NCBI GenBank assembly: GCA_019752125.1
Contig: JAIEMM010000012.1
Location: 3,437-67,436 of the forward strand
Length of the DNA: 64,000 bases
From: Patescibacteria group bacterium
GTDB lineage: Bacteria > Patescibacteriota > Minisyncoccia > Phycocordibacterales > SBAW01
Direction: 5' to 3'
The position numbers and the translations under genes were made by a program. How positions within the stretch are numbered: the stretch's first letter is position 1; each line of letters starts with the position of its first letter. The notes under the pieces were generated by a model. The model had not been told where the DNA came from and did not search any database. It saw nothing but the letters and a program-made list of their open reading frames with translations. Below are positions 5,177-56,055 of the stretch, one piece after another.

Positions 5177-5296
5177 ATGCCAACATTGTACACCGGACAC
5201 GTTGTATACAGGTTGGCGCACGAAGATATTTGCTATTTTTACAAAATGTTGTATTGTGTACCTCGGTATGTTTTCAGTACATCCTTTAATAAAGGA

Positions 5297-5674
5297 ATGT
5301 TAGCTATGAGTATATGCGAAATTGGGACGGCATCTAGGCGGAAACCTGGCCCTCGCTGTGGTTCTCCGAATGGGCAAGCTGTAAGAGACGCATTGGAGGC
5401 TACGAGGAGGCTCATGCTTGCAGGCAATCTTTTCCCCACCATGAAAGAGATTGCAGATGTGGCGGGCTATACCGAACGGCATATATATTATTGCTGGGGA
5501 ACGCGTGCAGATTTGCACCACGCGGTGCTCGACGGCGATCCTGTTTTTGCCGCAAAGTGTGGCAGAATACTGCTCTCGCAGATCGGTGTCCCAGACATGC
5601 CTCATAGGTCAGACGAACTTGACGCCTGGTTCGACGGCCTTTGCAGAAAGACCTTGTTGGATAAGATTGGATAA
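5297..5674 (+). CDS. small HTH protein, TetR-like N-terminal domain
   Basis: TMKEIADVAGYTERHIYYCWGTRADL resembles TetR HTH; internal ATG chosen because the 5' part of the ORF overlaps the SOD gene; followed by the 'gcgaccc..gggccgcc-T-run' terminator. Confidence 0.4.
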   Translation: MLAMSICEIGTASRRKPGPRCGSPNGQAVRDALEATRRLMLAGNLFPTMKEIADVAGYTERHIYYCWGTRADLHHAVLDGDPVFAAKCGRILLSQIGVPDMPHRSDELDAWFDGLCRKTLLDKIG

Positions 5675-5722
5675 TCAAAAAGCGACCCTCTCGGGCCGCC
5701 TTTTTTCTATGTAAATATTAGT

Positions 5723-5965
5723 TTAGATAAGACCAGCCTTTTTGAGGGTCTTGTATGCGCCGTTCTTGGCGATAGTCTTGAGGCCTTGAGTCGAGACAGT
5801 GACAGTGATGGTCTTGTTGAGCTCAGGGACGAAAATGCGCTTCTTCTGGAGGTTTACCTGCTTACGGACATTGCCAGTAGGGTTGAATTTTGTAGCACGA
5901 ATACGGTTGCTGTAGCCGCCAGCAACTAGAGAGCTTTTATTCGTGATGGGACAAGTCTTTGCCAT
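5723..5965 (-). CDS. rpmB: 50S ribosomal protein L28
   Basis: 80 aa MAKTCPITNKSS...typical L28. Confidence 0.85.
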   Translation of the reverse strand: MAKTCPITNKSSLVAGGYSNRIRATKFNPTGNVRKQVNLQKKRIFVPELNKTITVTVSTQGLKTIAKNGAYKTLKKAGLI

Positions 5966-18530: not shown

Positions 18531-18566
18531 AAAAACTCTCGCCTCACGGCGGGAGTTTTGTTTCTT
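18531..18566 (+). terminator. rho-independent terminator after rplB
   Basis: ctcgcc-tcac-ggcggg stem then ttttgttt. Confidence 0.65.
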
Positions 18567-18589
18567 GCTCTTTGGAGAAAATATCCTAT

Positions 18590-18820
18590 AGTAACGCCTA
18601 GATAGTTCGGGGCCACACTCTACGCTAATGCTGGGATGCCTAGAATTGAAGGTATATGGAGGCCCCACCGTCCTTCGTGTTCCTTGTCCTTCGGCCAGCC
18701 GGGACCAGGGTGCCCGTAATCGCTATGCAGACAGACTCTTGGAACGGTATGTGTGTTGGAAATAGCGAACCCAGATTTTTCAGTTTTGCCTGCCTAGTCC
18801 TTTAGGCAGGTTTTTCTTTT
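18590..18820 (+). ncRNA. candidate small RNA / structured transcript ending in a + strand terminator (18789-18820)
   Basis: ~200 nt non-coding stretch after the rplB terminator, ending in cctgcct...aggcagg + T-run; no family recognised by eye. Confidence 0.25.
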
Positions 18821-18821
18821 G

Positions 18822-18851
18822 TAAAAAAGAAATCCCCGCTGCAGGGCGGGG
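18822..18851 (-). terminator. minus-strand terminator (ccccgc..gcgggg + T-run) after gene 18854-19198
   Basis: Hairpin immediately 3' of the minus-strand stop; near-identical copy at 19259-19287. Confidence 0.6.
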
Positions 18852-18853
18852 GT

Positions 18854-19198
18854 TTAATAGTCGTAGGAGGCGAGCTTGTCGAGGAATTTCATCAGATCGG
18901 AAACATATTCCTTGCCTAATGGAATGCTCGCAGATTCCGTCTCCTCTTTCATGGGATCTTCGTAGCACAGCTTCAGCGACTGGCCGTCGATGTAGACCTT
19001 CAGGTAAATCAGTGTGCTTGGTTTCCCCGGACTATCTTCATCCAGGAATCCAACCTGCACAGCTTCGACCTCGAGGTCGGGGTACAGAGGATGGGAGATC
19101 ATAGAGCACCAAATTCCCAAACCCTTTTTATAGCTAAGCCGTTGTTGCGTTTTTCGGTGGATATCTCCGAAAACGGCTTCAGCAACTTCATACGCCAT
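18854..19198 (-). CDS. hypothetical protein (114 aa), antisense insertion in r-protein cluster
   Basis: ATG with RBS gggaga; own terminator; no recognisable domain. Confidence 0.45.
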   Translation of the reverse strand: MAYEVAEAVFGDIHRKTQQRLSYKKGLGIWCSMISHPLYPDLEVEAVQVGFLDEDSPGKPSTLIYLKVYIDGQSLKLCYEDPMKEETESASIPLGKEYVSDLMKFLDKLASYDY

Positions 19199-19258
19199 AG
19201 AGCAATCTCCCGCGTTATGATTGCCATCTATTCTAGATATAAAAAGTTGTCACTGCAA

Positions 19259-19287
19259 GTAAAAGAAATCCCCGCTGCAGGGCGGGG
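19259..19287 (-). terminator. minus-strand terminator after gene 19297-19500
   Basis: Same aaaagaaatccccgctgcagggcgggg module as 18822-18851. Confidence 0.6.
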
Positions 19288-19296
19288 AAGGGTGTT

Positions 19297-19500
19297 TCAG
19301 GACAGCTCTTGAAGCTGTCTCTTCATGTGGCCACGCAGGTCAGCCTCGAGAGCCTGGGAAGTTGCGGTAACCCAGCACTCGACAAACTCGGCCTCTGTCT
19401 GTTCGCTGAACGGCTTGTACAGGCCGGCGCCCTTGTCGAGACCTTCAAGGTCTTGTGATACGGTCGCCTTTGAAATTGCAACTTCAGGTGCGTCAGTCAT
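19297..19500 (-). CDS. hypothetical small acidic protein (67 aa)
   Basis: Internal ATG 19500 has RBS aggaggg 8 nt upstream; own terminator; no recognisable domain. Confidence 0.4.
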   Translation of the reverse strand: MTDAPEVAISKATVSQDLEGLDKGAGLYKPFSEQTEAEFVECWVTATSQALEADLRGHMKRQLQELS

Positions 19501-19660
19501 CGGTCCTGCCCTCCTTCTAGGCTCTAGTATAGCGCACAGCACACCTGCCGGTAGACAGGTTTGACTCATAAGAGCCTACCTGCTAGTATCTCTGTACTTC
19601 CGTGCCGCAAGGTCTAGCCGCTCTTTGGCTACGACGGGCAGGGAATTTAATTTTGGAAAG

Positions 19661-20378: not shown

Positions 20379-21047
20379 ATGTCTAAAGTAGTAAATCCAT
20401 TTGCACATCGTTTGGGAATCATCCATGACTGGCGTCATCGCTGGTTTGCGACGGGCCCTAAATTTCAGGAATATCTGAAAGCGGACATTCTCCTGCGCCA
20501 GTTTTTGCAGAAGGAGCTTCGCGGTATGTACATTGGTGGTATTGAGCTTGAACGCAATGACAAGACTCTCCGCGTCAAGATCTCAACCTCACGCCCAGGC
20601 GTTATCATTGGCCGCTCAGGTGAAGGTTCTACTAAGTTGAAGAACAAGATCACTGAATTTTTGACACGTCACAAATTAAACGCGCCTGAGATCAAACTCG
20701 ATATCGAAGAAATCCGCTCTCCTGAAAGCAACGCAGCTATCGTTGCGTATATGATCGCAGAGGGTCTCGAGAAACGCCTCCCATTCCGCCGTGTGTTGAA
20801 ACAAACAGTTGAGAAGGTGATGGCAAACCGCGATGTTAAGGGTGTTCGTATCGCTCTTGGCGGCATGCTCGGCGGTGGTTCTATGTCCCGCACTGAAGAG
20901 CTCAAGAAGGGTCGCGTACCACTCCAGACCTTCCGTTCAAACATCGACTACGCAAAGGAGCGCGCAAACCTTCCACTCGGCGTCATCGGTATCAAAGTAT
21001 GGATCTACAAAGGCGAAGTCTTTGCTGACAAGGCAAAAGAAAAATAA
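20379..21047 (+). CDS. rpsC: 30S ribosomal protein S3
   Basis: 222 aa S3 (KH + S3-C). Confidence 0.95.
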   Translation: MSKVVNPFAHRLGIIHDWRHRWFATGPKFQEYLKADILLRQFLQKELRGMYIGGIELERNDKTLRVKISTSRPGVIIGRSGEGSTKLKNKITEFLTRHKLNAPEIKLDIEEIRSPESNAAIVAYMIAEGLEKRLPFRRVLKQTVEKVMANRDVKGVRIALGGMLGGGSMSRTEELKKGRVPLQTFRSNIDYAKERANLPLGVIGIKVWIYKGEVFADKAKEK

Positions 21048-21050
21048 TTT

Positions 21051-21473
21051 ATGTTGTTTCCTAAAAAAGTAAAATTTAGAAAGTCTCACACGATGCGTCG
21101 CAATCCTAAACGCGAGATGGTTGCTTCTCGTGGTGCAACGATTGCCTTTGGCAGCCATGGTTTGAAGGCTACAACTGCTGCACGCGTTCGCTCAAACCAG
21201 ATCGAAAGCGCCCGCAAAGTTATCGCTCGCTCACTCGGTAAGACAGGTAAGTCATGGGTCCGCATCTTCCCCGATAAGCCATACACTCAAAAGCCGGCTG
21301 AAGTTAAGCTCGGTAAAGGTAAGGGAGATCCAGTTGGATACGAGGTCCAGATTTGGCCAGGCCGCATTTTGTTTGAAGTCGATGGCGTAGACGCAAAGCT
21401 TGCAACTACAGCGCTTATCAGCGCTTCAAAGAAGCTTCCGCTTAAGGCAAAAGTCGTAACACGCACCCACTAA
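21051..21473 (+). CDS. rplP: 50S ribosomal protein L16
   Basis: 140 aa L16. Confidence 0.95.
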   Translation: MLFPKKVKFRKSHTMRRNPKREMVASRGATIAFGSHGLKATTAARVRSNQIESARKVIARSLGKTGKSWVRIFPDKPYTQKPAEVKLGKGKGDPVGYEVQIWPGRILFEVDGVDAKLATTALISASKKLPLKAKVVTRTH

Positions 21474-21479
21474 ATCTAT

Positions 21480-21674
21480 ATGGCAAAGAAAACATCAATA
21501 AAAAATCATTCTGTCGAAGATTTGAACCGCCTTGTCAAAGACAAGCGTGAAGAACTCCGTACCTTGCGCTTTTCGGTCGCAGGTAGTAAAAATCGTAATG
21601 TGAAGCAGAGCAGAACGCTCCGCAAGGACGTTGCGCGCGCCCTCACGGCAATAAACGCTCACAAGAACGCATAA
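21480..21674 (+). CDS. rpmC: 50S ribosomal protein L29
   Basis: 64 aa L29. Confidence 0.9.
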   Translation: MAKKTSIKNHSVEDLNRLVKDKREELRTLRFSVAGSKNRNVKQSRTLRKDVARALTAINAHKNA

Positions 21675-21679
21675 CCTAT

Positions 21680-21931
21680 ATGGAAACCACTACACAAAAA
21701 AACATCAAAACCCTCCGAGGCGTTGTTACTTCGGACAAGATGCAGGAAACTGCGGTGGTTTCCGTGCAGCGCTATGTAAAGCACCCTAAATACAAGAAGT
21801 TCTTGAAGCAACATAAAAAGTACCACGTGCACAATCCGGGCAACCGCGCAAAGGAAGGCGAGAAAGTCGTCATCCGCTCATGCCGCCCACTTTCCAAGAC
21901 CAAATCGTTTGAAATCGTATTTGAGAATTAA
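21680..21931 (+). CDS. rpsQ: 30S ribosomal protein S17
   Basis: 83 aa S17. Confidence 0.9.
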   Translation: METTTQKNIKTLRGVVTSDKMQETAVVSVQRYVKHPKYKKFLKQHKKYHVHNPGNRAKEGEKVVIRSCRPLSKTKSFEIVFEN

Positions 21932-21934
21932 TTT

Positions 21935-22315
21935 ATGATCCAAGACCGCTCACTCGTTGTTGTTGCAGATAATTCAGGCGCCAAGATTGGCCGCATTTTC
22001 AAGATTCCTGGATCTTCTAAGAAGCGTTATGCGCAGATAGGGGAGATTGTTGTCTTGTCTGTACAGACAGCTGAACCTCGCAAGGCAGTTAAAAAGAAAG
22101 ACATCCTCAAGGGTGTTGTTGTTCGCCAGCGCCAGCCATTCCGCCGCAAAGATGGTTCGTACATCCGTTTTGATGAAAACGCAGTTGTTATCATCGAAGG
22201 CACAGGCAAGAACCCTAAAGAACCAAAAGCAGGACGCATCTTCGGTCCTATCCCACGCGAACTCCAGGAGCTCGGGTACCAGACAATCATCTCCCGTGCG
22301 CCGGAAGTCGTGTAA
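21935..22315 (+). CDS. rplN: 50S ribosomal protein L14
   Basis: 126 aa L14 (MIQDRSLVVVADNSGAK). Confidence 0.95.
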   Translation: MIQDRSLVVVADNSGAKIGRIFKIPGSSKKRYAQIGEIVVLSVQTAEPRKAVKKKDILKGVVVRQRQPFRRKDGSYIRFDENAVVIIEGTGKNPKEPKAGRIFGPIPRELQELGYQTIISRAPEVV

Positions 22316-22347
22316 AAATTTATTTTTACACCAATAAAAAGAATTTT

Positions 22348-22575
22348 ATGAATACATTACACATCAAGAAAGGCGATACCGTGGTAGTCCTATCAGGTAA
22401 CCACAAGGGCAAGTCTGGCAAAATCGTTAAGGCTTTCCCAAAGACCGGCATGGTATTGGTAGAAGGCATCGGCATGCACAAGAAGCATCAGAAGGCTCGC
22501 CGCGAAGGTCAGCAAGGACAGATAGTCGACAAGCACCACCCAATTGCCGCAAGCAAAGTAGCGAAGAAGAAATAA
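22348..22575 (+). CDS. rplX: 50S ribosomal protein L24
   Basis: 75 aa KOW-type L24. Confidence 0.9.
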   Translation: MNTLHIKKGDTVVVLSGNHKGKSGKIVKAFPKTGMVLVEGIGMHKKHQKARREGQQGQIVDKHHPIAASKVAKKK

Positions 22576-22578
22576 TAT

Positions 22579-23115
22579 ATGGCTAACCTCATTCAGGAAC
22601 AACAGAAAACTGTTTTCAATGACCTCAAAAAAGAATTTGAGTGGGCTAACGTCATGCAAGTTCCAAAAATTCAAAAAGTAGTTGTTTCAGTTGGTATTGG
22701 TTCAACTAAAGACAAAAACAAAATTAAGCTTATCGCAGAACGCTTGGCTACTATTACGGGCCAGAAGCCAGCAACTCGTATCACAAAGAAGGCTATTGCG
22801 TCGTACAAGACTCGCGTTGGTGATACTGTTGGCTACCAAGTAACACTCCGCGGTATTCGTGCACAGAATTTCTTGAACCGCTTGCTCCACATCGCGCTTC
22901 CTCGTACGAAAGACTTTAAGGGTATCCCAGCAAACTCAGTCGACGAGATGGGTAACTACACTCTTGGTATCAAAGAACACAGTGTGTTCCCTGAAACTGC
23001 AGACGAAGAACTCAAGGATATCTTCGGAATGGCTATCACTGTCGTTACTACTGCAAAGAACAAAGCAGAAGCAAAAGCATACCTCACACACCTCGGTTTT
23101 CCCTTCAAGAAATAA
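22579..23115 (+). CDS. rplE: 50S ribosomal protein L5
   Basis: 178 aa L5. Confidence 0.95.
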   Translation: MANLIQEQQKTVFNDLKKEFEWANVMQVPKIQKVVVSVGIGSTKDKNKIKLIAERLATITGQKPATRITKKAIASYKTRVGDTVGYQVTLRGIRAQNFLNRLLHIALPRTKDFKGIPANSVDEMGNYTLGIKEHSVFPETADEELKDIFGMAITVVTTAKNKAEAKAYLTHLGFPFKK

Positions 23116-23135
23116 TTTTTAAGAAATATGAAATT

Positions 23136-23163
23136 GGCCCCATGCGGGGCCTTTTTCTTTTTA
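23136..23163 (+). terminator. rho-independent terminator after rplE
   Basis: ggcccc-atgc-ggggcc then tttttcttttt. Confidence 0.75.
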
Positions 23164-23246
23164 TAAATCTACCTTGCTTTATGTTCCACAATTAGGCATA
23201 TTTCCTTTAGAGTTTTCGAGTACACCGTCCACACGAGGAGGATTCC

Positions 23247-23870
23247 ATGGACGTACATCATGAGCCTAAGCGGGCAGCGTTGAGTTCATATGGAGGAGGT
23301 GGAATAAGCCTCAACGGCCTGAACCGCGCGGAAGAGGATATCCTTGAAGGCGCATTCAGGACTGGCCACCACTGGGTCCGTATGGGGCAGAATGGCCGCA
23401 TCGAGCACACACCATCTTTCAATGCCTTGCCGAGTCCGGCTGACGATGACCGTATGCTCCCGTTTTGGAGGGAGGGTGAGAAAAAACCTCCTGTCCAACT
23501 GGAACTGTTCAGCCACGCTGAAACTGGTGACCAGCGCCTACACTCGAGTCGCTCATTCACCATCCAGCACCTGTGCGGCTACGGCTACACGCCGGAGAAG
23601 TACAAGGCGCAAGCTGCCCTCCTTGAGAGTTGGGGGTTCGAGTGTCTACGTTCCCGCCGGGGCAAGACTGGAGAGTTCTGGGAAATCTGGTTCTTGCCTG
23701 GTGTTTGGGCCGCCAAGGGCAGTCTAAAAACGGCAGTGCATCGACTCCCACAGAAAGAGCGGAACGAAGAGACTCAAGCAAAGCTTGCACTTGAATTTAT
23801 CCGTCGTAACGCAAGCTTCGGCACCTTGGACGTATCGGTTCAGCGTCTTGCCCAAGTGCTGGACGACTAA
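23247..23870 (+). CDS. hypothetical protein (207 aa), cassette gene 1
   Basis: ATG ORF; followed by cassette terminator; no recognisable domain. Confidence 0.5.
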   Translation: MDVHHEPKRAALSSYGGGGISLNGLNRAEEDILEGAFRTGHHWVRMGQNGRIEHTPSFNALPSPADDDRMLPFWREGEKKPPVQLELFSHAETGDQRLHSSRSFTIQHLCGYGYTPEKYKAQAALLESWGFECLRSRRGKTGEFWEIWFLPGVWAAKGSLKTAVHRLPQKERNEETQAKLALEFIRRNASFGTLDVSVQRLAQVLDD

Positions 23871-23893
23871 CATTCACGTGGCGACCCCGCAAG

Positions 23894-23946
23894 GGCCGCC
23901 CTTTTTCTTTTGACAAAGAAGTAGTGGGTAGGTAGGGTGGTTTCAG
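23894..23946 (+). repeat. 53-nt repeat copy A: terminator 3' half + promoter (TTGACA-N17-TAGGGT-ggtttcag)
   Basis: Identical to 24344-24396; TTGACA at 23910-23915, TAGGGT at 23933-23938. Confidence 0.7.
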
Positions 23947-23969
23947 ACTGCAACGTAAGGAGGTTCAAC

Positions 23970-24314
23970 ATGTCCGACTGGCTCGATCAGCTCCCATTAT
24001 TGCCCAAAAGTAAGGGGCGGTTGGAACATAAGGAGAGTTGGCCTGAAAAGCTGGCGCTTCAGGTGTTCGATCGGAAAGTACCTACCGACCAAAGGACCCA
24101 CGGTAACGCACTTTTCCAGATCCGCTCCGTGCTCGACCCTGTCACCGTGCAGGAAGACATCACCCACGTAAGGTCGTCAGCCCCTTTGCCTTTCTCGGAG
24201 CGCGATCAGCAGGTGTTCCTTGCGGTAATCCAATGGCTCGGCACTAATATTGGCCGAGGCTTCATGAGCGACTTTCAAAAGCAGCTGGACTCTGAATTTG
24301 AGCGTCGGCGTTAA
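23970..24314 (+). CDS. hypothetical protein (114 aa), cassette gene 2
   Basis: RBS aaggagg before ATG 23970; the upstream GTG (23937) lies inside the promoter repeat. Confidence 0.5.
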   Translation: MSDWLDQLPLLPKSKGRLEHKESWPEKLALQVFDRKVPTDQRTHGNALFQIRSVLDPVTVQEDITHVRSSAPLPFSERDQQVFLAVIQWLGTNIGRGFMSDFQKQLDSEFERRR

Positions 24315-24343
24315 TGTAAGAGCGACCCATCCAGGCCGCCCTT

Positions 24344-24396
24344 TTTCTTTTGACAAAGAAGTAGTGGGTAGGTAGGGTGGTTTCAGTTGATCAACG
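24344..24396 (+). repeat. 53-nt repeat copy B: terminator 3' half + promoter
   Basis: Identical to copy A; TTGACA 24360-24365. Confidence 0.7.
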
Positions 24397-24409
24397 AAAG
24401 GGGCTAGTT

Positions 24410-25045
24410 ATGCTCAGCATAGAGGAAAGATTTGTCGGAGCGTACATGTATGCGCTCAGTGAGGCGCTCATGCAGACGCGCGTAAAGGCTGTTGTGGACA
24501 CGGAAGCATCCGCGCTCTTCACTTTGGTAAAGTCGATTACGAATGGCGGTCTCACAAGCAAAAAGAAGCCTCACTCGCTCATTGAGCTACCCATCATTTT
24601 TGCTCTTCGCTTCCAGCGTGACCCCACAATGCGTACGCAGTTTGTGAAACACCAATTTCTTGAGTGTTCGAGGCAGGAGAAACGGAATGCACATGACCGT
24701 GCAATTCTCCGTAGTGCGTATCTGGCTGAGTTGCTTGAGGGTAGGGGTTCGAAAGGTGTCCAAGATTTCGTTCTTCGGAGCTACAGCACCGGCGTGCTCT
24801 TTACGACGGATGTCGGCGGGTTAGCGAAGGACGGGTTCTTCTTCCCTCTACCGGGCGGTGAGAAATCGATCTTTCCTTTTGTGCCGGGGGACGCACGTAT
24901 GTTCACCGCGGCATGCTTTGGGGCGCTCTACGGTCCAAAGAAGCTTACCTTTGCGGACTGGCAGGAAAAGCTGATCGAGAATCACTCCGGAATCAAGGAT
25001 CTCGGCCGCATGCTCTTCAGGGCAGCTTATGGTTACGAGGTCTAG
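24410..25045 (+). CDS. hypothetical protein (211 aa), cassette gene 3
   Basis: ATG 24410 after gaaagggg; no recognisable domain. Confidence 0.5.
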   Translation: MLSIEERFVGAYMYALSEALMQTRVKAVVDTEASALFTLVKSITNGGLTSKKKPHSLIELPIIFALRFQRDPTMRTQFVKHQFLECSRQEKRNAHDRAILRSAYLAELLEGRGSKGVQDFVLRSYSTGVLFTTDVGGLAKDGFFFPLPGGEKSIFPFVPGDARMFTAACFGALYGPKKLTFADWQEKLIENHSGIKDLGRMLFRAAYGYEV

Positions 25046-25056
25046 AACGATACAGG

Positions 25057-25110
25057 CGACCCATCCGGGCCGCCTTTTTCTTTTGCAATAAATTTTTTGG
25101 GTGGTATGGT
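25057..25110 (+). promoter_or_regulatory. cassette terminator (gcgacccatccgggccgcc + T-run) and degenerate promoter (TTGCAA-N16-TATGGT)
   Basis: Related to copies A/B but diverged after the T-run. Confidence 0.5.
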
Positions 25111-25167
25111 TGGCGCGGTTTGCCTCTCGCCAGAAAGGAGGGGTTAGTTCTACGTCAGGAGACCGTT

Positions 25168-26028
25168 ATGTCCAAGTCAACCGTTCTGCGTCATCCTTTG
25201 GCAGCACAGGGTGCTGTAATTCACGATGTTAGGAACTTTAAACACTGGGTCTCACTCTGGGATGAAATGTGGAAAAAGACTCCCGTCCAGAGCGAGTATG
25301 CAGAAGGTCTGCTACACGCAATCTTCAGCCCCACCCATACGATTTCTGAGCTTCGGGAAGTGTTCCATATCTGCGCCGTCCTTGCTGATGGACACAACTG
25401 TGAACGCTATTTCGTTGCGGAAGGGGAGAAGTACGGTGACTTTAGTCTTGCAGACATCGATTCGCCGCATTTGAACTACCATCCTCGTTGCAACTTGGCT
25501 CGGCGGGCATGGAGGGAGCTCTGCAACAACATGTTTGTCAGAGACACCTACAAGTCCCAATACACGTTGGCTCAGCTCTACGACTTCAGTCAGGGGATGG
25601 AGCCAAATGTGGTCGCGGAGGACATGCTCAGGCTGTTCCATCCTTCGCCTCCATATATGACTTCTCCAGACCATAGAAACTTCTACGGCAATACCAAGGA
25701 GGCGGGGAAGCACATCGAGACCTTTAAGCGTTTCCTGCGAGAGCTGTGGTGCCTGCATGATCCTGAGCGAGTGCCTAAGTATCTGCGTGAGCTGAGGGTG
25801 CGTTCCATCCCACATCTCGTCTGGTCGGGTATGGCCCCGGAGCTCATGAGGGACACTCCGGAAGTCTCTATGGAGGATGAGAATTGGCCTTACGATGAAA
25901 TCCTTGAGTATCTCAAGAGCAGGATTGCGTTCGGCGCGAAGGGCTTGTTGTCCAAGCAGCTTGCCAGCGGATCAGAGCTGACGATGCTCTATATCCAGTT
26001 CACTGCTCGTCGGAAGCTGCACAAGTAG
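25168..26028 (+). CDS. hypothetical protein (286 aa), cassette gene 4
   Basis: ATG 25168 preceded by gaaaggagg/caggag RBS; the longer ORF-track start overlaps gene 3 in another frame. Confidence 0.55.
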   Translation: MSKSTVLRHPLAAQGAVIHDVRNFKHWVSLWDEMWKKTPVQSEYAEGLLHAIFSPTHTISELREVFHICAVLADGHNCERYFVAEGEKYGDFSLADIDSPHLNYHPRCNLARRAWRELCNNMFVRDTYKSQYTLAQLYDFSQGMEPNVVAEDMLRLFHPSPPYMTSPDHRNFYGNTKEAGKHIETFKRFLRELWCLHDPERVPKYLRELRVRSIPHLVWSGMAPELMRDTPEVSMEDENWPYDEILEYLKSRIAFGAKGLLSKQLASGSELTMLYIQFTARRKLHK

Positions 26029-26042
26029 CGACCGTCGATGCG

Positions 26043-26072
26043 GGCGGCCCCAAAAAGGCCGCCTTTTTCTTT
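26043..26072 (+). terminator. cassette terminator D (ggcggcc...ggccgcc + T-run)
   Basis: 7-bp GC stem followed by tttttctttt. Confidence 0.7.
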
Positions 26073-26126
26073 TGCAAATCGAAATTTTAGAAATATTTCA
26101 GTACTCATTTTGCTATTCTCGTCAGA

Positions 26127-26193
26127 GCTGGCAGCACGGTGCGGCACAGGATTGCTAATCCAGGCGTCGAAGGTTCGAGTCCTTCTGCCAGCG
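26127..26193 (+). ncRNA. tRNA-like element / probable pseudo-tRNA (67 nt; good acceptor and T arms, collapsed D-arm; nominal anticodon GCU)
   Basis: GCTGGCA/TGCCAGC acceptor pairing, GAAGG-TTCGAGT-CCTTC T-arm, TTGCTAA loop; only 13 nt where the D-arm should be; no CCA. Confidence 0.35.
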
Positions 26194-26263
26194 TACGTTG
26201 ACCTTAGTAGCTTTGCGGAAGTATCATTACTAACGAGGATAATCCTCTGGCGCTGGCAGAAAC

Positions 26264-26295
26264 AAAACCCCCGTTTGAGCGGGGGTTTTTGTTTT
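26264..26295 (+). terminator. strong rho-independent terminator (aaaaccccc-gtttgag-cgggggttttt)
   Basis: Ends the tRNA-like transcription unit. Confidence 0.75.
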
Positions 26296-26318
26296 ATATG
26301 GCGGAGTATAGAATTTGT

Positions 26319-26347
26319 TTGACTTCCAGGGTGGGGTCAAGTATATT
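26319..26347 (+). promoter_or_regulatory. candidate promoter for rpsN-secY block (TTGACT-N17-TATATT)
   Basis: Near-consensus hexamers; followed by hairpin+T-run (26352-26378) and a ~115-nt leader. Confidence 0.55.
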
Positions 26348-26493
26348 GCTTGAAGCCCATCAGGGCTCCTTTTTTCTGTAAGGTGCCGCTTAGTCGCAAG
26401 GCGAGGCATACCCCCAGAATCATCCTTCGACAGGCTCAGGATAAATAACCAGAGCTCGATCGGAGAAAAGATAAAGAAAGGGATACTATATCC

Positions 26494-26679
26494 ATGGCAA
26501 AGAAATCTACAGTCGCACGCTCAAACAAGACCCCGAAGTTTAAGTCGAGGGTCGTTCGCCGTTGCTTCCGCTGTGGTCGCAAGCGCGCCTTTATGCGTGA
26601 CTTCGGTATGTGCCGCGCTTGCTTCCGTGAAGCAGCCAACGAAGGTCTTATTCCGGGCGTCCGCAAATCATCTTGGTAA
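26494..26679 (+). CDS. rpsN: 30S ribosomal protein S14, Zn-ribbon (type Z)
   Basis: 61 aa with CxxC...CxxC. Confidence 0.9.
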
Positions 26680-26682
26680 TTT

Positions 26683-27072
26683 ATGTTAATGGACCCAATC
26701 TCAGATTTCATAATTCGTATCCAAAACGCTTCTCGCGCAAAGCTTAGTGTTGTCTCTTTGCCGTACTCAAATATGAAAGAGGCAATTGCTGAAGTTCTCG
26801 AGCAAGAAGGCTACATCACAGGAATCGACAAGAAGGCAAAGAAAGAAGGCGTGCTCTCAGTTACCCTTGCATACAAAGATGGTGTGCCAGTCGTACAGGG
26901 AGTAAAGCGCATCTCTAAACCATCACGTCGCCTTTATGTTGGTGTTCGCGATATCAAGCCAGTTAAACGCGGATATGGTGCAGTTGTCCTTTCAACTCCA
27001 GCAGGTGTTATGAGCGGCAAGCAGGCCAAGATCAAGAATGTTGGCGGCGAAATCCTTTTCGAAATCTGGTAA
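26683..27072 (+). CDS. rpsH: 30S ribosomal protein S8
   Basis: 129 aa S8. Confidence 0.95.
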   Translation: MLMDPISDFIIRIQNASRAKLSVVSLPYSNMKEAIAEVLEQEGYITGIDKKAKKEGVLSVTLAYKDGVPVVQGVKRISKPSRRLYVGVRDIKPVKRGYGAVVLSTPAGVMSGKQAKIKNVGGEILFEIW

Positions 27073-27085
27073 TTCTGAAATTTAT

Positions 27086-27619
27086 ATGTCACGTCTTGCA
27101 AAACAACCAATCGCGATACCGCCTAAAGCTGAAATTTCTATTTCAGATAATTCTATCGTGGTAAAAGGACCAAAAGGCACACTTACAAAGCCTACACACC
27201 GCCTCGTAAGCGTTGAGGTTGTGCCTGAAGGTGTGCAGGTTGCTGTCCGCGGTACTTCGCTTGAGGGCAAGGCACTTGTCGGCACCTACGCATCGCATGT
27301 CAAAAATATGTTCAAGGGCGTTACTGAAGGCTACACAAAGAAGCTTTTGATCGAAGGTGTCGGCTACAAGTGGGATGTCGCAGGAACAAAGCTCAACCTT
27401 GCGCTTGGCTTCTCGCACCCAGTTCATGTAGAAATCCCTGCAGGTCTTACGGTTAAAGCAGACAAGGGTGCCCTCACAATTGAAGGTCATGACAAAGAAG
27501 AGGTTGGACAATTTGCCGCAAACATCCGTGCGATGAAGAAGCCAGAGCCGTACAAAGGCAAGGGCATCCGCTACGATGGGGAAGTTATCCGCCGCAAGCA
27601 AGGTAAGAAAGCCGCATAA
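27086..27619 (+). CDS. rplF: 50S ribosomal protein L6
   Basis: [12 protein letters not shown] start; two L6 domains. Confidence 0.95.
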
Positions 27620-27624
27620 ACTAT

Positions 27625-27930
27625 ATGGATACTAATCGGCAACGCCGCCACAACCGAATACGCGCAAAAGTTAAGGGTACTCCTGAACGCCCACGCCTGT
27701 GTGTGTACAAATCGAACAAGTACCTCGAAGCGCAAATCATCGATGATGTTAGCGGCCGCACCTTGGTCGCAGGCAAAATGGATGATGCCCAGAAGTTGGG
27801 CACAGAACTTGCTAAGAAGGCAAAAGCAGCCGGTATTACCAAGGTTGTGTTCGATCGCGGAGGTTTCCGCTATACTGGCGCAGTTGCAACACTTGCTGAT
27901 GCGGCACGAACGGGAGGTCTGGAATTTTAA
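27625..27930 (+). CDS. rplR: 50S ribosomal protein L18
   Basis: 101 aa L18. Confidence 0.9.
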
Positions 27931-27965
27931 AGAAAATTTGAAGTTTACGAAGATAAATTAAAAAG

Positions 27966-28571
27966 ATGGCTGAATTAGAACAAAACGTCACAGAAACACC
28001 AGAAGTAGCTACTGAAGAAGCAGTGGCTGTTGACGCTACGTCTGCACCTGCAGAAACCTCTCCTGCTCGTGCTCCTCGTGGCCGTGGTGGTCGTCCTGAG
28101 CGTGGTGGTCGCCGCCCATCAAGCCGCCCTCCTCGTCCAAAAAGCGAATTTGATCAGCGCATGATCAATATCCGCCGCGTTGCCCGCGTTGTTGCAGGTG
28201 GCCGCCGCTTCTCTTTCAGCGTTGCTATCATTTTGGGTAACAAGAAAGGAAAAGTTGGCGTAGGTCTCGGCAAGGCAGGGGACACAACACTCGCTATTGA
28301 AAAAGCAGTTCGCGATGCAAAGAAAAACATGATCACTGTGCATCTTACGAAGGACAGCTCTATTGCACACGAAGTCTCAGCAAAATACTGTGCCGCACGC
28401 GTTTCAATGATGCCAGCAAGCGGCCGTGGGTTGGTTGCAGGTTCATCGGTTCGCCCAGTGCTTGAGCTTGCCGGTGTTACTAACACGGTTGCAAAGATCC
28501 ACTCAGGTAGCAAAAACGGTCTTAACAATGCACGCGCCGCAGTCGAGGCGCTTCGTAAGCTCAAAGCCTAA
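27966..28571 (+). CDS. rpsE: 30S ribosomal protein S5 with Arg/Gly/Pro-rich N-terminal extension
   Basis: S5 dsRBD + C-domain; low-complexity N-terminus. Confidence 0.9.
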   Translation: MAELEQNVTETPEVATEEAVAVDATSAPAETSPARAPRGRGGRPERGGRRPSSRPPRPKSEFDQRMINIRRVARVVAGGRRFSFSVAIILGNKKGKVGVGLGKAGDTTLAIEKAVRDAKKNMITVHLTKDSSIAHEVSAKYCAARVSMMPASGRGLVAGSSVRPVLELAGVTNTVAKIHSGSKNGLNNARAAVEALRKLKA

Positions 28572-28579
28572 ATACCAAC

Positions 28580-29020
28580 ATGCAACTTCACGAACTTAAA
28601 CGCAAAACTGAAAATAAGGAAACCAAAAAGGTTGGCCGTGGTGGGTCCAGGGGTAAGACCTCTGGCCGTGGTACTAAGGGTCAGAACGCACGCGCAGGTC
28701 ACAAGAAGCGCCCAGAAATCCGCGAAATCTTGAAGAAGCTTCCTAAGCGCCGCGGTCGTGGTATCGCAGGTCTTGTCAGCATCAAAAACAAGCCGTCAGT
28801 TGTAAATGTCTCATCTATCGAGAAAGCATTTACAGCAGGGGAGACCATTACAGCAAAGTTGTTGCTTGAACATGGTATCGTACGTGGACGCAAGGGTGTC
28901 ACTCCAGTAGTAAAGATTTTGGGCGACGGTGAGCTCACAAAGAAGTTCACGTTCTCAGGTCTCGTTGTTTCAGCATCTGCAAAAGAAAAAATAGAAAAAG
29001 CCGGAGGTTCGATCGCATAA
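28580..29020 (+). CDS. rplO: 50S ribosomal protein L15
   Basis: 146 aa L15. Confidence 0.9.
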   Translation: MQLHELKRKTENKETKKVGRGGSRGKTSGRGTKGQNARAGHKKRPEIREILKKLPKRRGRGIAGLVSIKNKPSVVNVSSIEKAFTAGETITAKLLLEHGIVRGRKGVTPVVKILGDGELTKKFTFSGLVVSASAKEKIEKAGGSIA

Positions 29021-42744: not shown

Positions 42745-42895
42745 AACAAAAAGCCCGCCGCGGGTAGTGGCCGAAGCCACTCATGCAAGTTTCCCTGCAC
42801 GGCCGGTGAAGGCAGACCCCACGACGGGTTTTCTGGCCTTCACCGGACTTTCGACCTTGCCGATAGGGAAGCTATCGGGTTAGGTCCTTTTTATT
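42745..42895 (+). ncRNA. candidate structured RNA/leader with long imperfect hairpins and a terminator (42853-42895) upstream of the AbiV-like gene
   Basis: gtggc-cgaa-gccac tetraloop hairpin; ccggtgaaggc...gccttcaccgg 11-bp arms; gacc..cgatag-ggaagc-tatcg..ggtc + T-run. Confidence 0.3.
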
Positions 42896-44624: not shown

Positions 44625-46238
44625 ATGGCAAAGAAAGCACTAATTTACTGCCGAGTATCTTCCGTTAGGCAGGCTACTGAAGGTCATGGCTTGGATGCTC
44701 AAGAACATCGATGCCGTGAATTTGCACGCGCCAAAGACTATGAAGTCGTAACTGCTTTCAAAGATAGTTTTAGCGGCGGAGGCGATTATAGAAATCGTCC
44801 TGGAATGACCAGTCTTTTGGAATATATCGATAAGTATCCACATATAGAGTTCGTGGTTCTTTTTGATGATCTTAAGCGTTTGGCAAGAGATACTATTTTC
44901 TATCTTGAACTGCTGCAGGAATTTAAAATACGAGGTGTGGCGCTTGAGAGCCCGAACATTGTTTTGGGAAATTCAGCGGAAGATGAATTTGTGCAAACTG
45001 TCCTGATGGGTGCTGCACAATTGGAACGCAAACAAAATAAACGACAAGTAGTTCAAAAAATGAAAGCACGATTGGAGAAAGGCTACTGGGCTTTTTATCC
45101 GCCTCCTGGTTACAGACAAGTGAAAGATCCTGTACATGGAAGGATATTAATCCCCACCGATGTAGAAGCCCCCATTATTAAAGAAGCCCTTGAGGGTTTT
45201 GCATCTGGCAGATTTCCGCACCTTACGGATGTAATGAATTTTCTCCGGGAGGTCGGCTTCCGTGGCCGTCCCATCTATGTAGAAGGCGTCAGGCGTTTAT
45301 TAAAGCGAATTATATATGCCGGCTATATCGAATACCCTGCATGGGATGTGGCAACTACAAAAGGTCATCACGAGGCTCTTATAAGTCTTGAGACATATCA
45401 AATTATTCAAGATCGTCTCGCTGGACGTTACAAAGCGCGTGCTCGCAAGACAGATAATCTTTATTTCGTTCTGCGAGGTTTCCTTTTGTGTGCATCTTGT
45501 AGCCATGCATATACCGGCAGCTGGTCGAAAGGGAGGAATGGTAAGTTTCGATATTACCGTTGCAACAAGCCAGGCTGCGAACGTTTAAATAAGAGCATCC
45601 GTGCAGACAAAATTGATAAGGAGTTCGAAGTATTACTCAAATCTGTTCTCCCTAAGCAAGAGATGGCGCAATTCGCCAAGGCGGTAGTCTTGGATATATG
45701 GGCAAGCAAAGTAAAAGATTTTAAAAATGATCAGGCGATGCTTGAACGACGGCTCGCGGCCATCAAGCAGGATATCGACGCTTTGTCCCGTCGCATTGCA
45801 AAGACAGTCGAAGAATCTTTAATACGTAATTACGAGCAACAGATCCTGAGTTTGACCAACGAAAGTAGGGTTTTGCAGGAGCAACTCAAGAATTTGGGTT
45901 TATCAGCAGTAAGTTTTGAAACCGCATTGGAAGTGGTCATGGCGTTTCTCAATAATCCTTTGGCTATATGGGAAAACGGCGACCTAAACGCAAAAAGATT
46001 AGTCTTGCGACTAATCTTTGCGGACAAATTGGCGTACCATCACGAACTTGGTTTTGGAACCGCTCAAAAATCCTTGCTTATAGGTCTTTTTGAGCAGGTT
46101 CATGCCAAAAAATCTCAGGATGTGGAGATGCCGGGAGTTGAACCCGGGTGCAAAGCAAATTCTTTACGCGATCTACCAAACGTAGTTCGTTCTAAGTTCT
46201 CGTCTATCTGCATCAAGAGCGAACAAAAGCGCAGATAG
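44625..46238 (+). CDS. large serine recombinase (resolvase catalytic domain + recombinase domain + zinc ribbon + coiled coil)
   Basis: ALIYCRVSSVRQ catalytic Ser; Cys cluster CASCSHAY...YYRC; 537 aa. Confidence 0.85.
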   Translation: MAKKALIYCRVSSVRQATEGHGLDAQEHRCREFARAKDYEVVTAFKDSFSGGGDYRNRPGMTSLLEYIDKYPHIEFVVLFDDLKRLARDTIFYLELLQEFKIRGVALESPNIVLGNSAEDEFVQTVLMGAAQLERKQNKRQVVQKMKARLEKGYWAFYPPPGYRQVKDPVHGRILIPTDVEAPIIKEALEGFASGRFPHLTDVMNFLREVGFRGRPIYVEGVRRLLKRIIYAGYIEYPAWDVATTKGHHEALISLETYQIIQDRLAGRYKARARKTDNLYFVLRGFLLCASCSHAYTGSWSKGRNGKFRYYRCNKPGCERLNKSIRADKIDKEFEVLLKSVLPKQEMAQFAKAVVLDIWASKVKDFKNDQAMLERRLAAIKQDIDALSRRIAKTVEESLIRNYEQQILSLTNESRVLQEQLKNLGLSAVSFETALEVVMAFLNNPLAIWENGDLNAKRLVLRLIFADKLAYHHELGFGTAQKSLLIGLFEQVHAKKSQDVEMPGVEPGCKANSLRDLPNVVRSKFSSICIKSEQKRR

Positions 46239-46548
46239 ATAAAGTTCAAGTCTTAGACAAACGGGCGAACAATCCGTTTATAGCAACTCGATGTTATAAC
46301 ACTTGATCCTTCCTCACGAGTGTTGGAAGGGAAGTGACACGTTAAGCCTTAGCGTAGGCGAACGCGAAATCATTCGCCGTGAAAAACGGCGATGCAACTG
46401 ATTTGCCAGTTAGAGTTTGGAGCAGTTTAAAGAATTACCCCAGTTCTGATTGGCAACGTAAAGAGTGGTTGCAATGTCTAGGCCTGTCATCCCCAAGAAG
46501 TTCGCGACGCTAACCCGTGCTTCTTGCAGATTTTTGACCTATTCACCT

Positions 46549-54503: not shown

Positions 54504-54593
<90 letters not shown>

Positions 54594-54595
54594 GG

Positions 54596-54662
54596 ACAAT
54601 TTTTTATCGGCATGACCCGCAGTGTTGCGAGCAAGCTGTGACCCGAGTGCCTAAAAAATTGT
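54596..54662. repeat. inverted repeat (acaatttttta / taaaaaattgt, 11-bp arms) directly 3' of tRNA-Ser: candidate att site
   Basis: Arms flank a 45-bp GC-rich core between tRNA and recombinase. Confidence 0.35.
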
Positions 54663-54665
54663 AAC

Positions 54666-54696
54666 AAAAAAGAACGATTTCGATCGTTCTTTTTTG
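54666..54696. terminator. bidirectional terminator (gaacgat-ttcg-atcgttc with A- and T-runs)
   Basis: Read directly; serves the tRNA and the convergent recombinase. Confidence 0.7.
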
Positions 54697-54702
54697 TTTA
54701 CT

Positions 54703-56055
54703 CTACTCCTCAAGCATCGTTATCTTTTTGTCTTTGTAGTTCAGTCTGCTTCGTAGGTTGGCGAGTAATTCTCTTTTGTCTGATGTGCTTCCTTCTTTGA
54801 GTAGGTACTTTGCGTATTGCCTGATATTCACATCGTCCTCCTCCACCAGTGAGTTGCCTGATTTTCCATTCACTATCTTTTGCAGTTTGTTGAATCGCCG
54901 TATTTCATCTTCGAGCTTTTGCCTCATGCCCAGCTCGTTAATATTTACGATGTCTATTATTTTCAATAGCTCATCTATCAGCTCTTCCTCACGAATGTAC
55001 TTGTTCTTGCAGTTTCTGTCTCGTGCACGACTGCATCCGTAGTAGATGTAGTGTGCCGATGTGCCGTCTTTGAGTGGTTTCCACTTCTCTTCTGCCGATA
55101 TACCACTCTGGCAGTATCCGCAGGTAAATAATTTCGTGAAGGCGAACTCTTTATTCTCACGCACTATCTGGTCGCGTTTCAGTTGTGCTTGAGCTTTCTC
55201 AAACAACTCTTGAGTGATGAGCGGTGTATGTTTGCCTTGATACCAGTTTCCACTTTCTCGCGGATATTCAAATGGTCCGTAGTAGAAGGGATTATCGAGT
55301 ATGCGGTACACACCACTTAGCGTCAGTGGTTTGTTTCCGCGTGTATGAAAGTTCAGTTCAAACTTTAGCCAGTTGTATATCTTTCTCCCCGAATAGCGTT
55401 CGTACGAGACTTTCTCGAACATTTTCTTTACTATCGGTGCGCGTAGGGTATCGACTGCAATCTGGCACTTCTTGTCCATTAACTTTTGGTTCAAGTATCC
55501 GAGTGGTGCCACCCCAGGCCATAGTCCCATCTCCACCCTCGTTCGTAGTCCGCGCTTTACGTTGATACCTCGGTTGTCATTCTCTAGCTTTGCCTGTGAC
55601 CCCAGAATCATCAACAGGAATTTCTCACTCGGGCTATTGGTGAACCGTTGTCCGAAGGTACGTATCTCCACCAATAACTTTGCGTCCATCAAGTCCACTA
55701 TCTTTCCGAGGTCGCCAGCATTTCTGCTGATACGATCTGGTGCCCACGTCAGTATTCCCGTGAACTTGCCTTGTCGTATTTCCTCGATAATCTCGTTGAA
55801 GACAGGACGTTGCCCCGTCTCTTTTGCCGAGTGTGATTCTCTCTTGATTTCGACAATCTCAAGACCCTCGCGTTCTGCGAGTTGAATCATCTCTTTTATC
55901 TGACTATCTATAGAGAGGATTTGTCGCTCCTCACTTTCGGTCGACTTTCTCGCATAGAGGCAGTACTTAATGATAGGAGCTGGCTCAGCCTGCCTCACGC
56001 CGAGGTTAGTCCTTGATGTTGTTGTTTTTTCCATACAACACAAGGAATGACGCAA
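54703..56055 (-). CDS. large serine recombinase
   Basis: 450 aa; YARKSTESEE catalytic Ser region, recombinase domain, Cys zinc ribbon, C-terminal coiled coil. Confidence 0.85.
   Translation of the reverse strand: MRHSLCCMEKTTTSRTNLGVRQAEPAPIIKYCLYARKSTESEERQILSIDSQIKEMIQLAEREGLEIVEIKRESHSAKETGQRPVFNEIIEEIRQGKFTGILTWAPDRISRNAGDLGKIVDLMDAKLLVEIRTFGQRFTNSPSEKFLLMILGSQAKLENDNRGINVKRGLRTRVEMGLWPGVAPLGYLNQKLMDKKCQIAVDTLRAPIVKKMFEKVSYERYSGRKIYNWLKFELNFHTRGNKPLTLSGVYRILDNPFYYGPFEYPRESGNWYQGKHTPLITQELFEKAQAQLKRDQIVRENKEFAFTKLFTCGYCQSGISAEEKWKPLKDGTSAHYIYYGCSRARDRNCKNKYIREEELIDELLKIIDIVNINELGMRQKLEDEIRRFNKLQKIVNGKSGNSLVEEDDVNIRQYAKYLLKEGSTSDKRELLANLRSRLNYKDKKITMLEE

Follow-up and report, generated by a model that had tools for sequence, protein, structure and literature searches.

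A putative terminator-promoter cassette, locally repeated in a variable gene island between uL5 and uS14 on a Patescibacteria chromosome

Introduction

Short intergenic cassettes that join transcription signals of opposite effect have been described in T4-type phages. These PeSL (promoter-early stem-loop) cassettes combine a sigma70-like promoter, an AT-rich tract upstream of it and a terminator stem-loop (Arbiol et al. 2010, PMC2839356). Within phage genomes they cluster ahead of ORFans, in regions that are hyperplastic, and modular shuffling by recombination has been described for them (PMC2839356; Comeau et al. 2014, PMC4122927). Here we describe intergenic cassettes of similar build in a 64-kb stretch (64,000 nt of contig JAIEMM010000012.1, assembly GCA_019752125.1) of a Patescibacteria metagenome-assembled genome (MAG). 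This whole stretch is called the window, and its positions are used throughout. Four cassettes, c1 to c4, lie in a 3.2-kb block of four genes, the island, between the ribosomal-protein genes uL5 and uS14, and two of them contain an exact 53-nt direct repeat.

The S10-spc-alpha block, to which these neighbours belong, is the most conserved gene cluster of bacteria and a standard marker set for placing uncultured lineages. Our analysis indicates as the likely explanation that the repeat is part of a composite terminator-promoter cassette, which has been copied locally in a hypervariable uL5-uS14 island.

Several properties of the cassettes resemble PeSLs. A sigma70-like promoter, an AT- or T-rich tract upstream of the -35 element and a terminator stem-loop are packed into one small intergenic motif. 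The promoter-bearing copies, all in the uL5-uS14 island, stand before ORFans in a hyperplastic region among conserved core genes. Near-identical copies occur, and they are associated with indels and replacements between close relatives. The differences are equally clear. The host is a Patescibacteria chromosome, where the hyperplastic region splits the spc ribosomal-protein cluster, and four copies were seen in 64 kb, compared with about 50 per phage genome. The geometry is fixed, with the stem-loop always upstream of the -35 element and the U-tract overlapping it, and the -10 element reads TAGGGT where PeSLs have TATAAT. The sequences show no similarity to PeSLs, evidence for mini-circles was not seen, and recombination at this locus is suggested only indirectly, by mosaic copies and a repeat-flanked gene. 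The cassettes are thus PeSL-like in architecture and setting, but not members of the PeSL family.

Results and discussion

The 53-nt repeat and the anatomy of the cassettes

The sequence GGCCGCCCTTTTTCTTTTGACAAAGAAGTAGTGGGTAGGTAGGGTGGTTTCAG was present twice as an exact direct repeat of 53 nt, at 23894-23946 and 24334-24386, and was the longest exact repeat in the window. The first-pass annotation, made from the sequence alone, had correctly reported two identical stretches, but had placed the second at 24344-24396, 10 nt off its true position, where the sequence is not identical. The identity ended sharply, and could not be extended by one base on either side. The flanks had no significant similarity except for the 7-nt left arm of a hairpin and the Shine-Dalgarno region. 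The other exact direct repeats of at least 20 nt in the window were a 27-mer (18825/19261), a 20-mer (20000/22564) and a 21-mer common to two looser cassettes, and no more. The cassettes, with their predicted promoter elements, were as follows.

23880-23946, plus strand: cassette c1; hairpin GGCGACCC-cgcaa-GGGCCGCC at 23880-23900 with an A.C mismatch; U-tract 23902-23911; -35 TTGACA 23910-23915; -10 TAGGGT 23933-23938; repeat copy 23894-23946
24322-24386, plus strand: cassette c2; hairpin GCGACC-catcca-GGCCGC at 24322-24339 with an A.C mismatch; U-tract 24342-24351; -35 TTGACA 24350-24355; -10 TAGGGT 24373-24378; repeat copy 24334-24386
25055-25110, plus strand: cassette c3; hairpin GGCGACCC-atcc-GGGCCGCC; U-tract 25075-25084; -35 TTGCAA 25083-25088; N16 spacer; -10 TATGGT 25105-25110, preceded by TGG and extended -10-like
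26042-26077, plus strand: cassette c4; perfect hairpin GGGCGGCC-ccaaaaa-GGCCGCC; U-tract; TTGCAA; no convincing -10; looser repeat version 26042-26085

The looser versions of the repeat that had been pointed out earlier were confirmed as c3 (hairpin, T-tract and TTGCAA-N16-TATGGT) and c4 (hairpin, T-tract and TTGCAA). The junctions have a common layout of stop codon, GC hairpin, U-tract TTTTTCTTTT, -35 element, a spacer of 16-17 nt and -10 element. The hairpins begin 10-14 nt past the stop codons and are followed by TTTTTCTTTT in c1-c4 and also in the terminator of uL5, which is the layout of intrinsic terminators. The last TTG of the U-tract opens the -35 hexamer, TTGACA in c1 and c2 and TTGCAA in c3 and c4. 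With TAGGGT in c1 and c2 (TTGACA-N17-TAGGGT) and TATGGT in c3 (TTGCAA-N16-TATGGT), the hexamers have a sigma70-type arrangement, and they are followed by a 5' untranslated region (5'UTR) of about 20-50 nt with a ribosome-binding site and an ATG. The exact repeat covers the descending arm of the hairpin and ends close to where transcription is predicted to start.

The terminator core GGCCGCCYTTTTTCTTTTG, with three mismatches or fewer allowed, was found four times in the window against 0.04 expected, and the pattern GCGACCC-N3-7-GGCCGCC likewise gave four matches against 0 expected. In c1-c3, GCGACCC pairs with GGGCCGC, and hence contains the A.C mismatch. The predicted energies were -11.4 kcal/mol for c1 (z -1.0), -6.9 for c2 (z -1.8), -13.3 for c3 (z -3.4) and -16.3 for c4, compared with -15.4 and -19.7 kcal/mol for perfect hairpins in the relatives L119 and L025; those of c3 and c4 were better than shuffles. 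The stems of the remaining terminator hairpins in the window were unrelated in sequence, with one outlying copy of the mismatched type.

5682-5706, plus strand: outlying mismatched hairpin; GCGACCCtctcGGGCCGCC followed by a T-run; arms GCGACCC-tctc-GGGCCGCC

This copy had been reported as the same terminator motif behind a TetR-like gene, and its hairpin (5682-5700) indeed has both arms in common with the island copies, including the A.C mismatch. It sits between the TetR-like gene (5309-5674) and the convergent bL28 gene (5723-5965, minus strand). Read on the minus strand, it is a hairpin that contains G.U pairing and has a T-run of its own behind bL28. The TetR-like helix-turn-helix protein is small (121 amino acids, aa), with a TetR_N score of 22.9 bits, just under the cut-off. 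The related promoter element that had been proposed before the TetR-like gene, at 5239-5275, did not hold up: the region does not align with the cassettes and has no -35/-10 pair at 16-18 nt spacing. The same mismatched hairpin also occurs 3' of the gene-3 orthologue in the relative L124 (about 1707-1726).

Conservation of the promoter in relatives

A cassette was found ahead of the orthologue of the third island gene in the relatives L119 and L124, as hairpin-TTTTTCTTTTGACAAAG-N13-GTAGGGT-N5-CAG. The T-tract, the -35 and -10 elements, their spacing and the CAG were all identical to the window (100%), while only 7 (L119) and 3 (L124) of the 13 central spacer positions were identical, with coding DNA about 71% identical. 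This pattern is the footprint that would be expected of a primary-sigma promoter, and because the hexamers and spacing are kept while the spacer drifts, the promoter appears to be under selection. The first-pass description of the repeat as half a terminator joined to a promoter is supported, as a GC hairpin and U-tract stand ahead of each unit and the -35/-10 pair at 17 nt is perfectly conserved at the orthologous positions of two relatives.

The same comparison indicates that spacer identity between orthologues is not selected, which points to a recent copying event as the source of the 53/53 identity of c1 and c2. A more distant orthologue of gene 3, in L115, was preceded by TTGCTT-N16-TAAGGT, which also overlapped a U-tract. 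Cassette c3 and its 5'UTR hairpin likewise have an orthologous counterpart in L114, ahead of the gene-4 homologue there.

The uL5-uS14 junction as an insertion hot spot

Among 47 related loci with both genes, the distance from uL5 to uS14 varied from 65 to 6954 nt, and the contents of the gap varied as well, including toxin-antitoxin pairs, a peptidase, tRNA genes and ORFans in both orientations. The closest relatives, L029, L031 and L032, have a uL5 93% identical to that of the window, an identical uS14 and flanks of 83-93% nucleotide identity; at the position of the island they have only 504 nt with one 75-aa gene. The homology between the window and L032 breaks at 23115 and 26314, and the island is absent from L032. 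In L029 (GCA_001775515.1, 9823-9832), a run of N lies exactly at the hairpin of the single uL5-uS14 cassette, which L031 and L032 read through; this suggests that such cassettes disturb assembly. The features at and near the edges of the island were as follows.

22579-23115: uL5 gene, left neighbour of the island
23136-23161, plus strand: intrinsic terminator of uL5, GGCCCCatgcGGGGCC followed by TTTTTCTTTT; -17.8 kcal/mol, z -4.0; left island edge
26127-26193, plus strand: degenerate tRNA-like sequence, downstream of c4; 29.6 bits with the tRNA model of Rfam (threshold 29)
26319-26493, plus strand: uS14 promoter (TTGACT-N17-TATATT, 26319-26347) and conserved structured leader; right island edge
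26494-26679: uS14 gene, right neighbour of the island

Because uL5 ends in a strong terminator and uS14 has its own promoter and leader, the uL5-uS14 junction marks, in this lineage, the boundary between two transcription units, which explains the tolerance of insertions there.

The uS14 leader contains a hairpin with a U-run (GAAGCCCAUCAGGGCUCCUUUUUUCUG), and in addition UUCUGU...ACAGAA form a long-range helix that encloses a variable stem. The leader is common to twelve relatives, with compensatory changes in 7 of 12 predicted pairs, and had no Rfam match. It is a candidate for a lineage-specific attenuator or autoregulatory leader of a ribosomal protein, perhaps S8. The tRNA-like sequence at 26127-26193, whose anticodon loop reads UUGCUAA, was not called by ARAGORN and was absent from relatives; the idea that it was a copy of the tRNA-Ser(GCT) gene at 54504 was rejected, as the two are not related. 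Behind it lies a very short unit, which opens with a promoter-like TTGACC-N18-TATCAT at 26198-26227 and is closed by a strong terminator at 26264-26289.

Cargo genes

The island carries four cargo genes.

23174-23202, plus strand: promoter of gene 1, TTGCTT-N17-CATATT
23247-23870, plus strand: gene 1, 207 aa; Patescibacteria-wide family of about 200 members (199 homologues)
23970-24314, plus strand: gene 2, 114 aa; ribosome-binding site AAGGAGG at 23957-23963; short family member with a C-terminal ...VIQWLGTN.GR.F domain
24410-25045, plus strand: gene 3, 211 aa; homologues 56-68% identical
25168-26028, plus strand: gene 4, 286 aa; 45%-identical homologue in the uL5-uS14 island of L114

None of the four had a Pfam, PHROG or PADLOC match, and no paralogy was found among them. 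An Rfam scan of the island, at gathering thresholds and at E<=1, gave only terminator-driven sub-threshold noise and the weak tRNA match.

Homologues of gene 1 elsewhere sit in unrelated genomic contexts. One of them, 55% identical and in a different context in L120, is preceded by the same hexamers at the same spacing as gene 1, TTGCTT-N17-CATATT. Invariant Cys, Trp and Arg positions of the family include C110, C133, R135, S136, R138 and W148. An AlphaFold2 model of gene 1 (predicted local distance difference test, pLDDT, 82) had no significant fold match in PDB, only generic ferredoxin-like folds at E>0.02, and the model of gene 3 was unusable (pLDDT 50). All gene 3 homologues with recoverable context were located between or adjoining uL5 and uS14 in metagenomic contigs of relatives. 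The gene 2-type domain spans about 100 aa, carries the motif RD..VA..V(I/V)QWLGTN.GR.F and has no Pfam family; other metagenomic proteins, 125-220 aa long, contain one copy of it or tandem copies.

Mosaic structure and copying history

The cassettes are mosaic. Over the left arm and loop (GCGACCCATCC) c2 equals c3, and from the right arm onward c2 equals c1, whose loop is CGCAA. All differences between c1 and c2 fall in the 5-6 nt loop of a unit of about 66 nt, which is unlikely under uniform mutation. Given this concentration in the loop, the left end of the 53-mer is best read as a boundary of recombination or conversion.

The gene 2 domain was also found in 179-aa genes of L119 (3536-4075) and L124 (406-945), ahead of the cassette and the gene-3 orthologue. 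Because this arrangement recurs there, the order gene 2-c2-gene 3 appears to be ancestral, with c2 as the native promoter of gene 3. The simplest history is that a unit with gene 1 was inserted ahead of gene 2, and that c1 was copied from c2 in the course of this event or later.

Outside the window, the same type of junction was found in L025, a 'Ca. Paceibacterota' MAG that is 76% identical to the window over uS19-uL5. Its island, between uL5 and the uS14 leader, has five genes separated by hairpin-TTTTTCTTTTGCAA-N16-TA(G/A)GGT junctions, one of which is 87% identical to c3 over 47 nt. The cargo proteins of L025 showed no resemblance to those of the window, and likewise had no match in Pfam, PHROG or PADLOC. 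Since the junctions are alike and the cargo is unrelated, the same promoter type serves non-homologous genes. The earlier idea of a portable expression cassette thus stands at the local scale, with the same type before unrelated genes in the window and in L025 and with mosaic copies.

Taken together, we propose that a Rho-independent terminator (GC hairpin and TTTTTCTTTT) is fused to a sigma70-type promoter, from which transcription would start about 7 nt past TAGGGT, where the repeat ends. Each cassette would close one monocistronic accessory gene and restart transcription for the next, and the cassettes would insulate the cargo from its ribosomal-protein neighbours to left and right, which are strongly transcribed. 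Cassette c1 would be a recent exact copy, set before gene 2 by recombination or gene conversion between cassettes, at or after the insertion of gene 1.

Some points weigh against this proposal. The hairpins of c1-c3, which carry the A.C mismatch, are weak (-6.9 to -13.3 kcal/mol), and those of c1 and c2 do not clearly exceed shuffled sequences in stability; termination may therefore be partial. Promoter and terminator function are read from sequence and conservation, and the contig is a metagenome assembly. Insertion duplication and gene conversion of older paralogous cassettes cannot be told apart as the source of c1. Finally, the window covers 64 kb of a genome of roughly 1 Mb, and further copies may exist elsewhere.

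The cassettes might do more than regulate. In an extension of this proposal, which we hold only tentatively, they would act as PeSL-like recombination modules, serving as homology tracts for the insertion, deletion and swap of promoter-gene-terminator units, either through unequal crossover or through circles that are excised and integrated again, and would drive the variability of the island. A cargo gene between identical direct repeats is the signature of Campbell-type integration, and the mosaic cassettes have their breakpoint in the hairpin loop. The wholly different cargo behind the same cassette type in L025, the different contexts of the gene 1 family in different genomes and the documented precedent in T4-type phages (PMC2839356, PMC4122927) also favour it, as does a second indel with a duplicated terminator at 18565-19318, described below. 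On the other hand, the low number of cassettes compared with phages speaks against it, and the islands of most other relatives are equally variable without this cassette type. No circular junctions or polymorphic arrangements were observed, and 53 nt is short, though workable, for RecA-dependent exchange.

The second indel separates the window from its closest relative L032 between uL2 and uS19. An inserted minus-strand open reading frame (ORF) at 18854-19198 (114 aa, no family match) and a resident minus-strand ORF at 19297-19569 both end in an identical 27-nt terminator (18825-18851 and 19261-19287). This is the same pattern of an inserted gene plus a duplicated regulatory element as that of the 53-nt repeat. 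At 18566-18811, some 210 nt in which no ORF is convincing separate a promoter-like TTGCTC-N17-TATAGT from a terminator (18788-18811). This unit may possibly be a small RNA; it had no Rfam match at E<=1 and was absent from the relatives fetched.

Distribution of the cassette and the question of a regulon

The promoter pattern TTG[AC][AC]A-N16-18-TA[AGT]GGT gave three matches in the window, all in the island, compared with a shuffle mean of 0.35. The same pattern had 11 matches in 729 kb of relatives' DNA, and five of them, four with a clear GC hairpin, lay directly behind a U-tract, all in uL5-uS14 islands. The hairpin-fused cassette can be written as the pattern hairpin+TTTTTCTTTTG[AC][AC]A-N16-17-TA[AGT]GGT. 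With a stricter junction motif, four copies were found in the island of the window and four in that of L025 (668 kb of relatives' DNA); two more matches in relatives were inside coding sequence and chance-like. We also scanned 185,579 species-representative genomes, not including the source genome, with GGCCGCC-N0-1-TTTTTCTTTTGMMA, which describes the junction of terminator and -35 element. The 28 loci obtained were all single, chance-like matches, except for L025, which had multiple copies in its uL5-uS14 island.

The first-pass annotation had suggested a genome-wide family or a dedicated regulon signal. This was not borne out, as promoter-type matches in the window occur only in the island and hairpin-fused matches in relatives only in uL5-uS14 islands. 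It had also called the -10 element unusual and asked which sigma factor recognises it. In a regulon of this kind, the G-rich -10 region (GGTAGGTAGGGTGG) would be read by an alternative sigma factor or by a specific regulator of the island genes, with the TetR-like protein as a candidate. Such a reading draws on TA[AGT]GGT -10 elements in the island promoters of five genomes, on the TATAAT-like elements of housekeeping promoters in the window (TATATT for uS14, TATAGT at 18566, TATCAT at 26222), and on the terminator of the TetR-like gene, which belongs to the same hairpin family. We nevertheless consider it improbable. The -10 positions that matter most for primary sigma factors are T-12, A-11 and T-7. 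TAGGGT retains all three and fits TAnnnT, and a dedicated sigma factor therefore appears unnecessary; the -35 element matches the primary-sigma TTGACA perfectly and stands at the canonical distance of 17 nt. Only the two hexamers and the bases directly beside them are conserved, and there is no palindrome of the kind expected of an operator. A different promoter precedes gene 1 of the same island, the window showed no gene for an alternative sigma factor, and the stretch ahead of the TetR-like gene gives no alignment with the cassettes.

Comparison with other repeated and modular elements

In their parts, the cassettes look like an ordinary back-to-back terminator and primary-sigma promoter. 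Hairpin, U-tract, -35 element, spacer of 16-17 nt, TAnnnT and ribosome-binding site are all standard, and the conservation pattern is that of textbooks. Identity of 100% over 53 nt, spacer included, is not a feature of ordinary intergenic regions, nor are such regions common to non-homologous genes in different genomes.

Repetitive extragenic palindromes (REPs) and bacterial interspersed mosaic elements (BIMEs) resemble the hairpins as repeated, imperfect GC-rich palindromes located 3' of genes, with a conserved mismatch. A selfish palindrome of the REP type, or a miniature inverted-repeat transposable element (MITE), might then lie between the genes by chance. The imperfect palindrome with its conserved mismatch is present four times in 64 kb, and a Y1 transposase gene is found in the ribosomal cluster of L115. 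Such an origin is nonetheless very unlikely, and we rejected it: three of the four copies are clustered in one island, exactly at junctions from stop codon to promoter, and tblastn found no REP-associated tyrosine transposase (RAYT/Y1) in the window. There were no terminal inverted repeats or target-site duplications, and the copy number seen was low. The elements here are fused to promoters and are positionally orthologous across genomes, with copies at the same junctions in relatives, while the other terminator hairpins in the window are unrelated.

The island also resembles an integron array, in which single genes, unrelated and mostly unknown, stand in tandem with an imperfect inverted repeat behind each, and the contents vary between relatives. 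Integron cassettes are typically promoterless, whereas every gene has its own promoter here. There is no adjacent integrase and there are no R/L core sites (GTTRRRY), and the hairpins are of 7-9 bp with U-tracts. An integron array was rejected on these grounds, with uL5 and uS14 as flanks and, as the only recombinases, large serine types 18-28 kb away.

An assembly artefact, in which two strains or loci were joined chimerically via a common 53-mer, is hardly credible even though the source is a MAG, L029 has its N run exactly at its cassette and a 53-nt exact repeat is, by our own reasoning, just under the k-1 limit of a k=55 assembler, because the 53-mer would still have to exist at two real junctions, the order gene 2-cassette-gene 3 occurs independently in L119 and L124, and the flanks on both sides are unique and coding.

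Implications for gene turnover in ribosomal-protein clusters

The uL5|uS14 junction in this one Patescibacteria lineage is an insertion hot spot of fast turnover, where a conserved terminator-promoter module encloses each cargo gene. Small genomes may in this way add accessory genes while the stoichiometry of ribosomal proteins stays undisturbed. Should the role of the cassettes be purely regulatory, this would be an ordinary case of local duplication of a regulatory region. By analogy with the phages, some Patescibacteria may possess a cellular counterpart of the PeSL, in which the cassettes are portable adaptors for both recombination and expression; this broader idea we regard as rather doubtful, though it offers a testable cellular parallel to PeSL-mediated modular shuffling. 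If it is true, single promoter-gene-terminator units would be captured, duplicated and exchanged at the hot spots uL5|uS14 and uL2|uS19 of the S10-spc clusters. The result would be a gene-cassette array that needs no integrase and is insulated from ribosomal transcription. For uncultured organisms, the comparison also provides a promoter model, TTGACA-N17-TA(G/A/T)GGT fused to a terminator U-tract.

Chromosomal setting and other features of the window

An initial suspicion that the cassettes belonged to a phage early region was rejected, because the window is chromosomal. It carries RecJ, GlmM, EF-G, EF-Tu, the S10 and spc ribosomal clusters, SecY, FtsH and RecG, together with two large serine recombinases, a transfer-messenger RNA (tmRNA) and a LOOT RNA. 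A megablast of 21000-29000 against phages, a tblastn of gene 3 against phages and a blastn of the island against plasmids gave no match, and the promoter pattern had two matches in IMG/VR, both without a hairpin and chance-like.

Between uS5 and uL15 (27966-29020) there is no uL30 gene, consistent with the lack of uL30 already known for the candidate phyla radiation (Patescibacteria). The LOOT RNA is full length and is located at 42766-42886 on the minus strand (Rfam RF03000, 86.8 bits). One large serine recombinase gene (44625-46238) overlaps the 3' side of the tmRNA gene (46120-46494, minus strand), and the second (54703-56055, minus strand) adjoins tRNA-Ser(GCT) at 54504-54593. Both regions (44625-46494 and 54504-56055) are probably integrated elements. 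The GC content falls to 0.40-0.44 at 42-46 kb.

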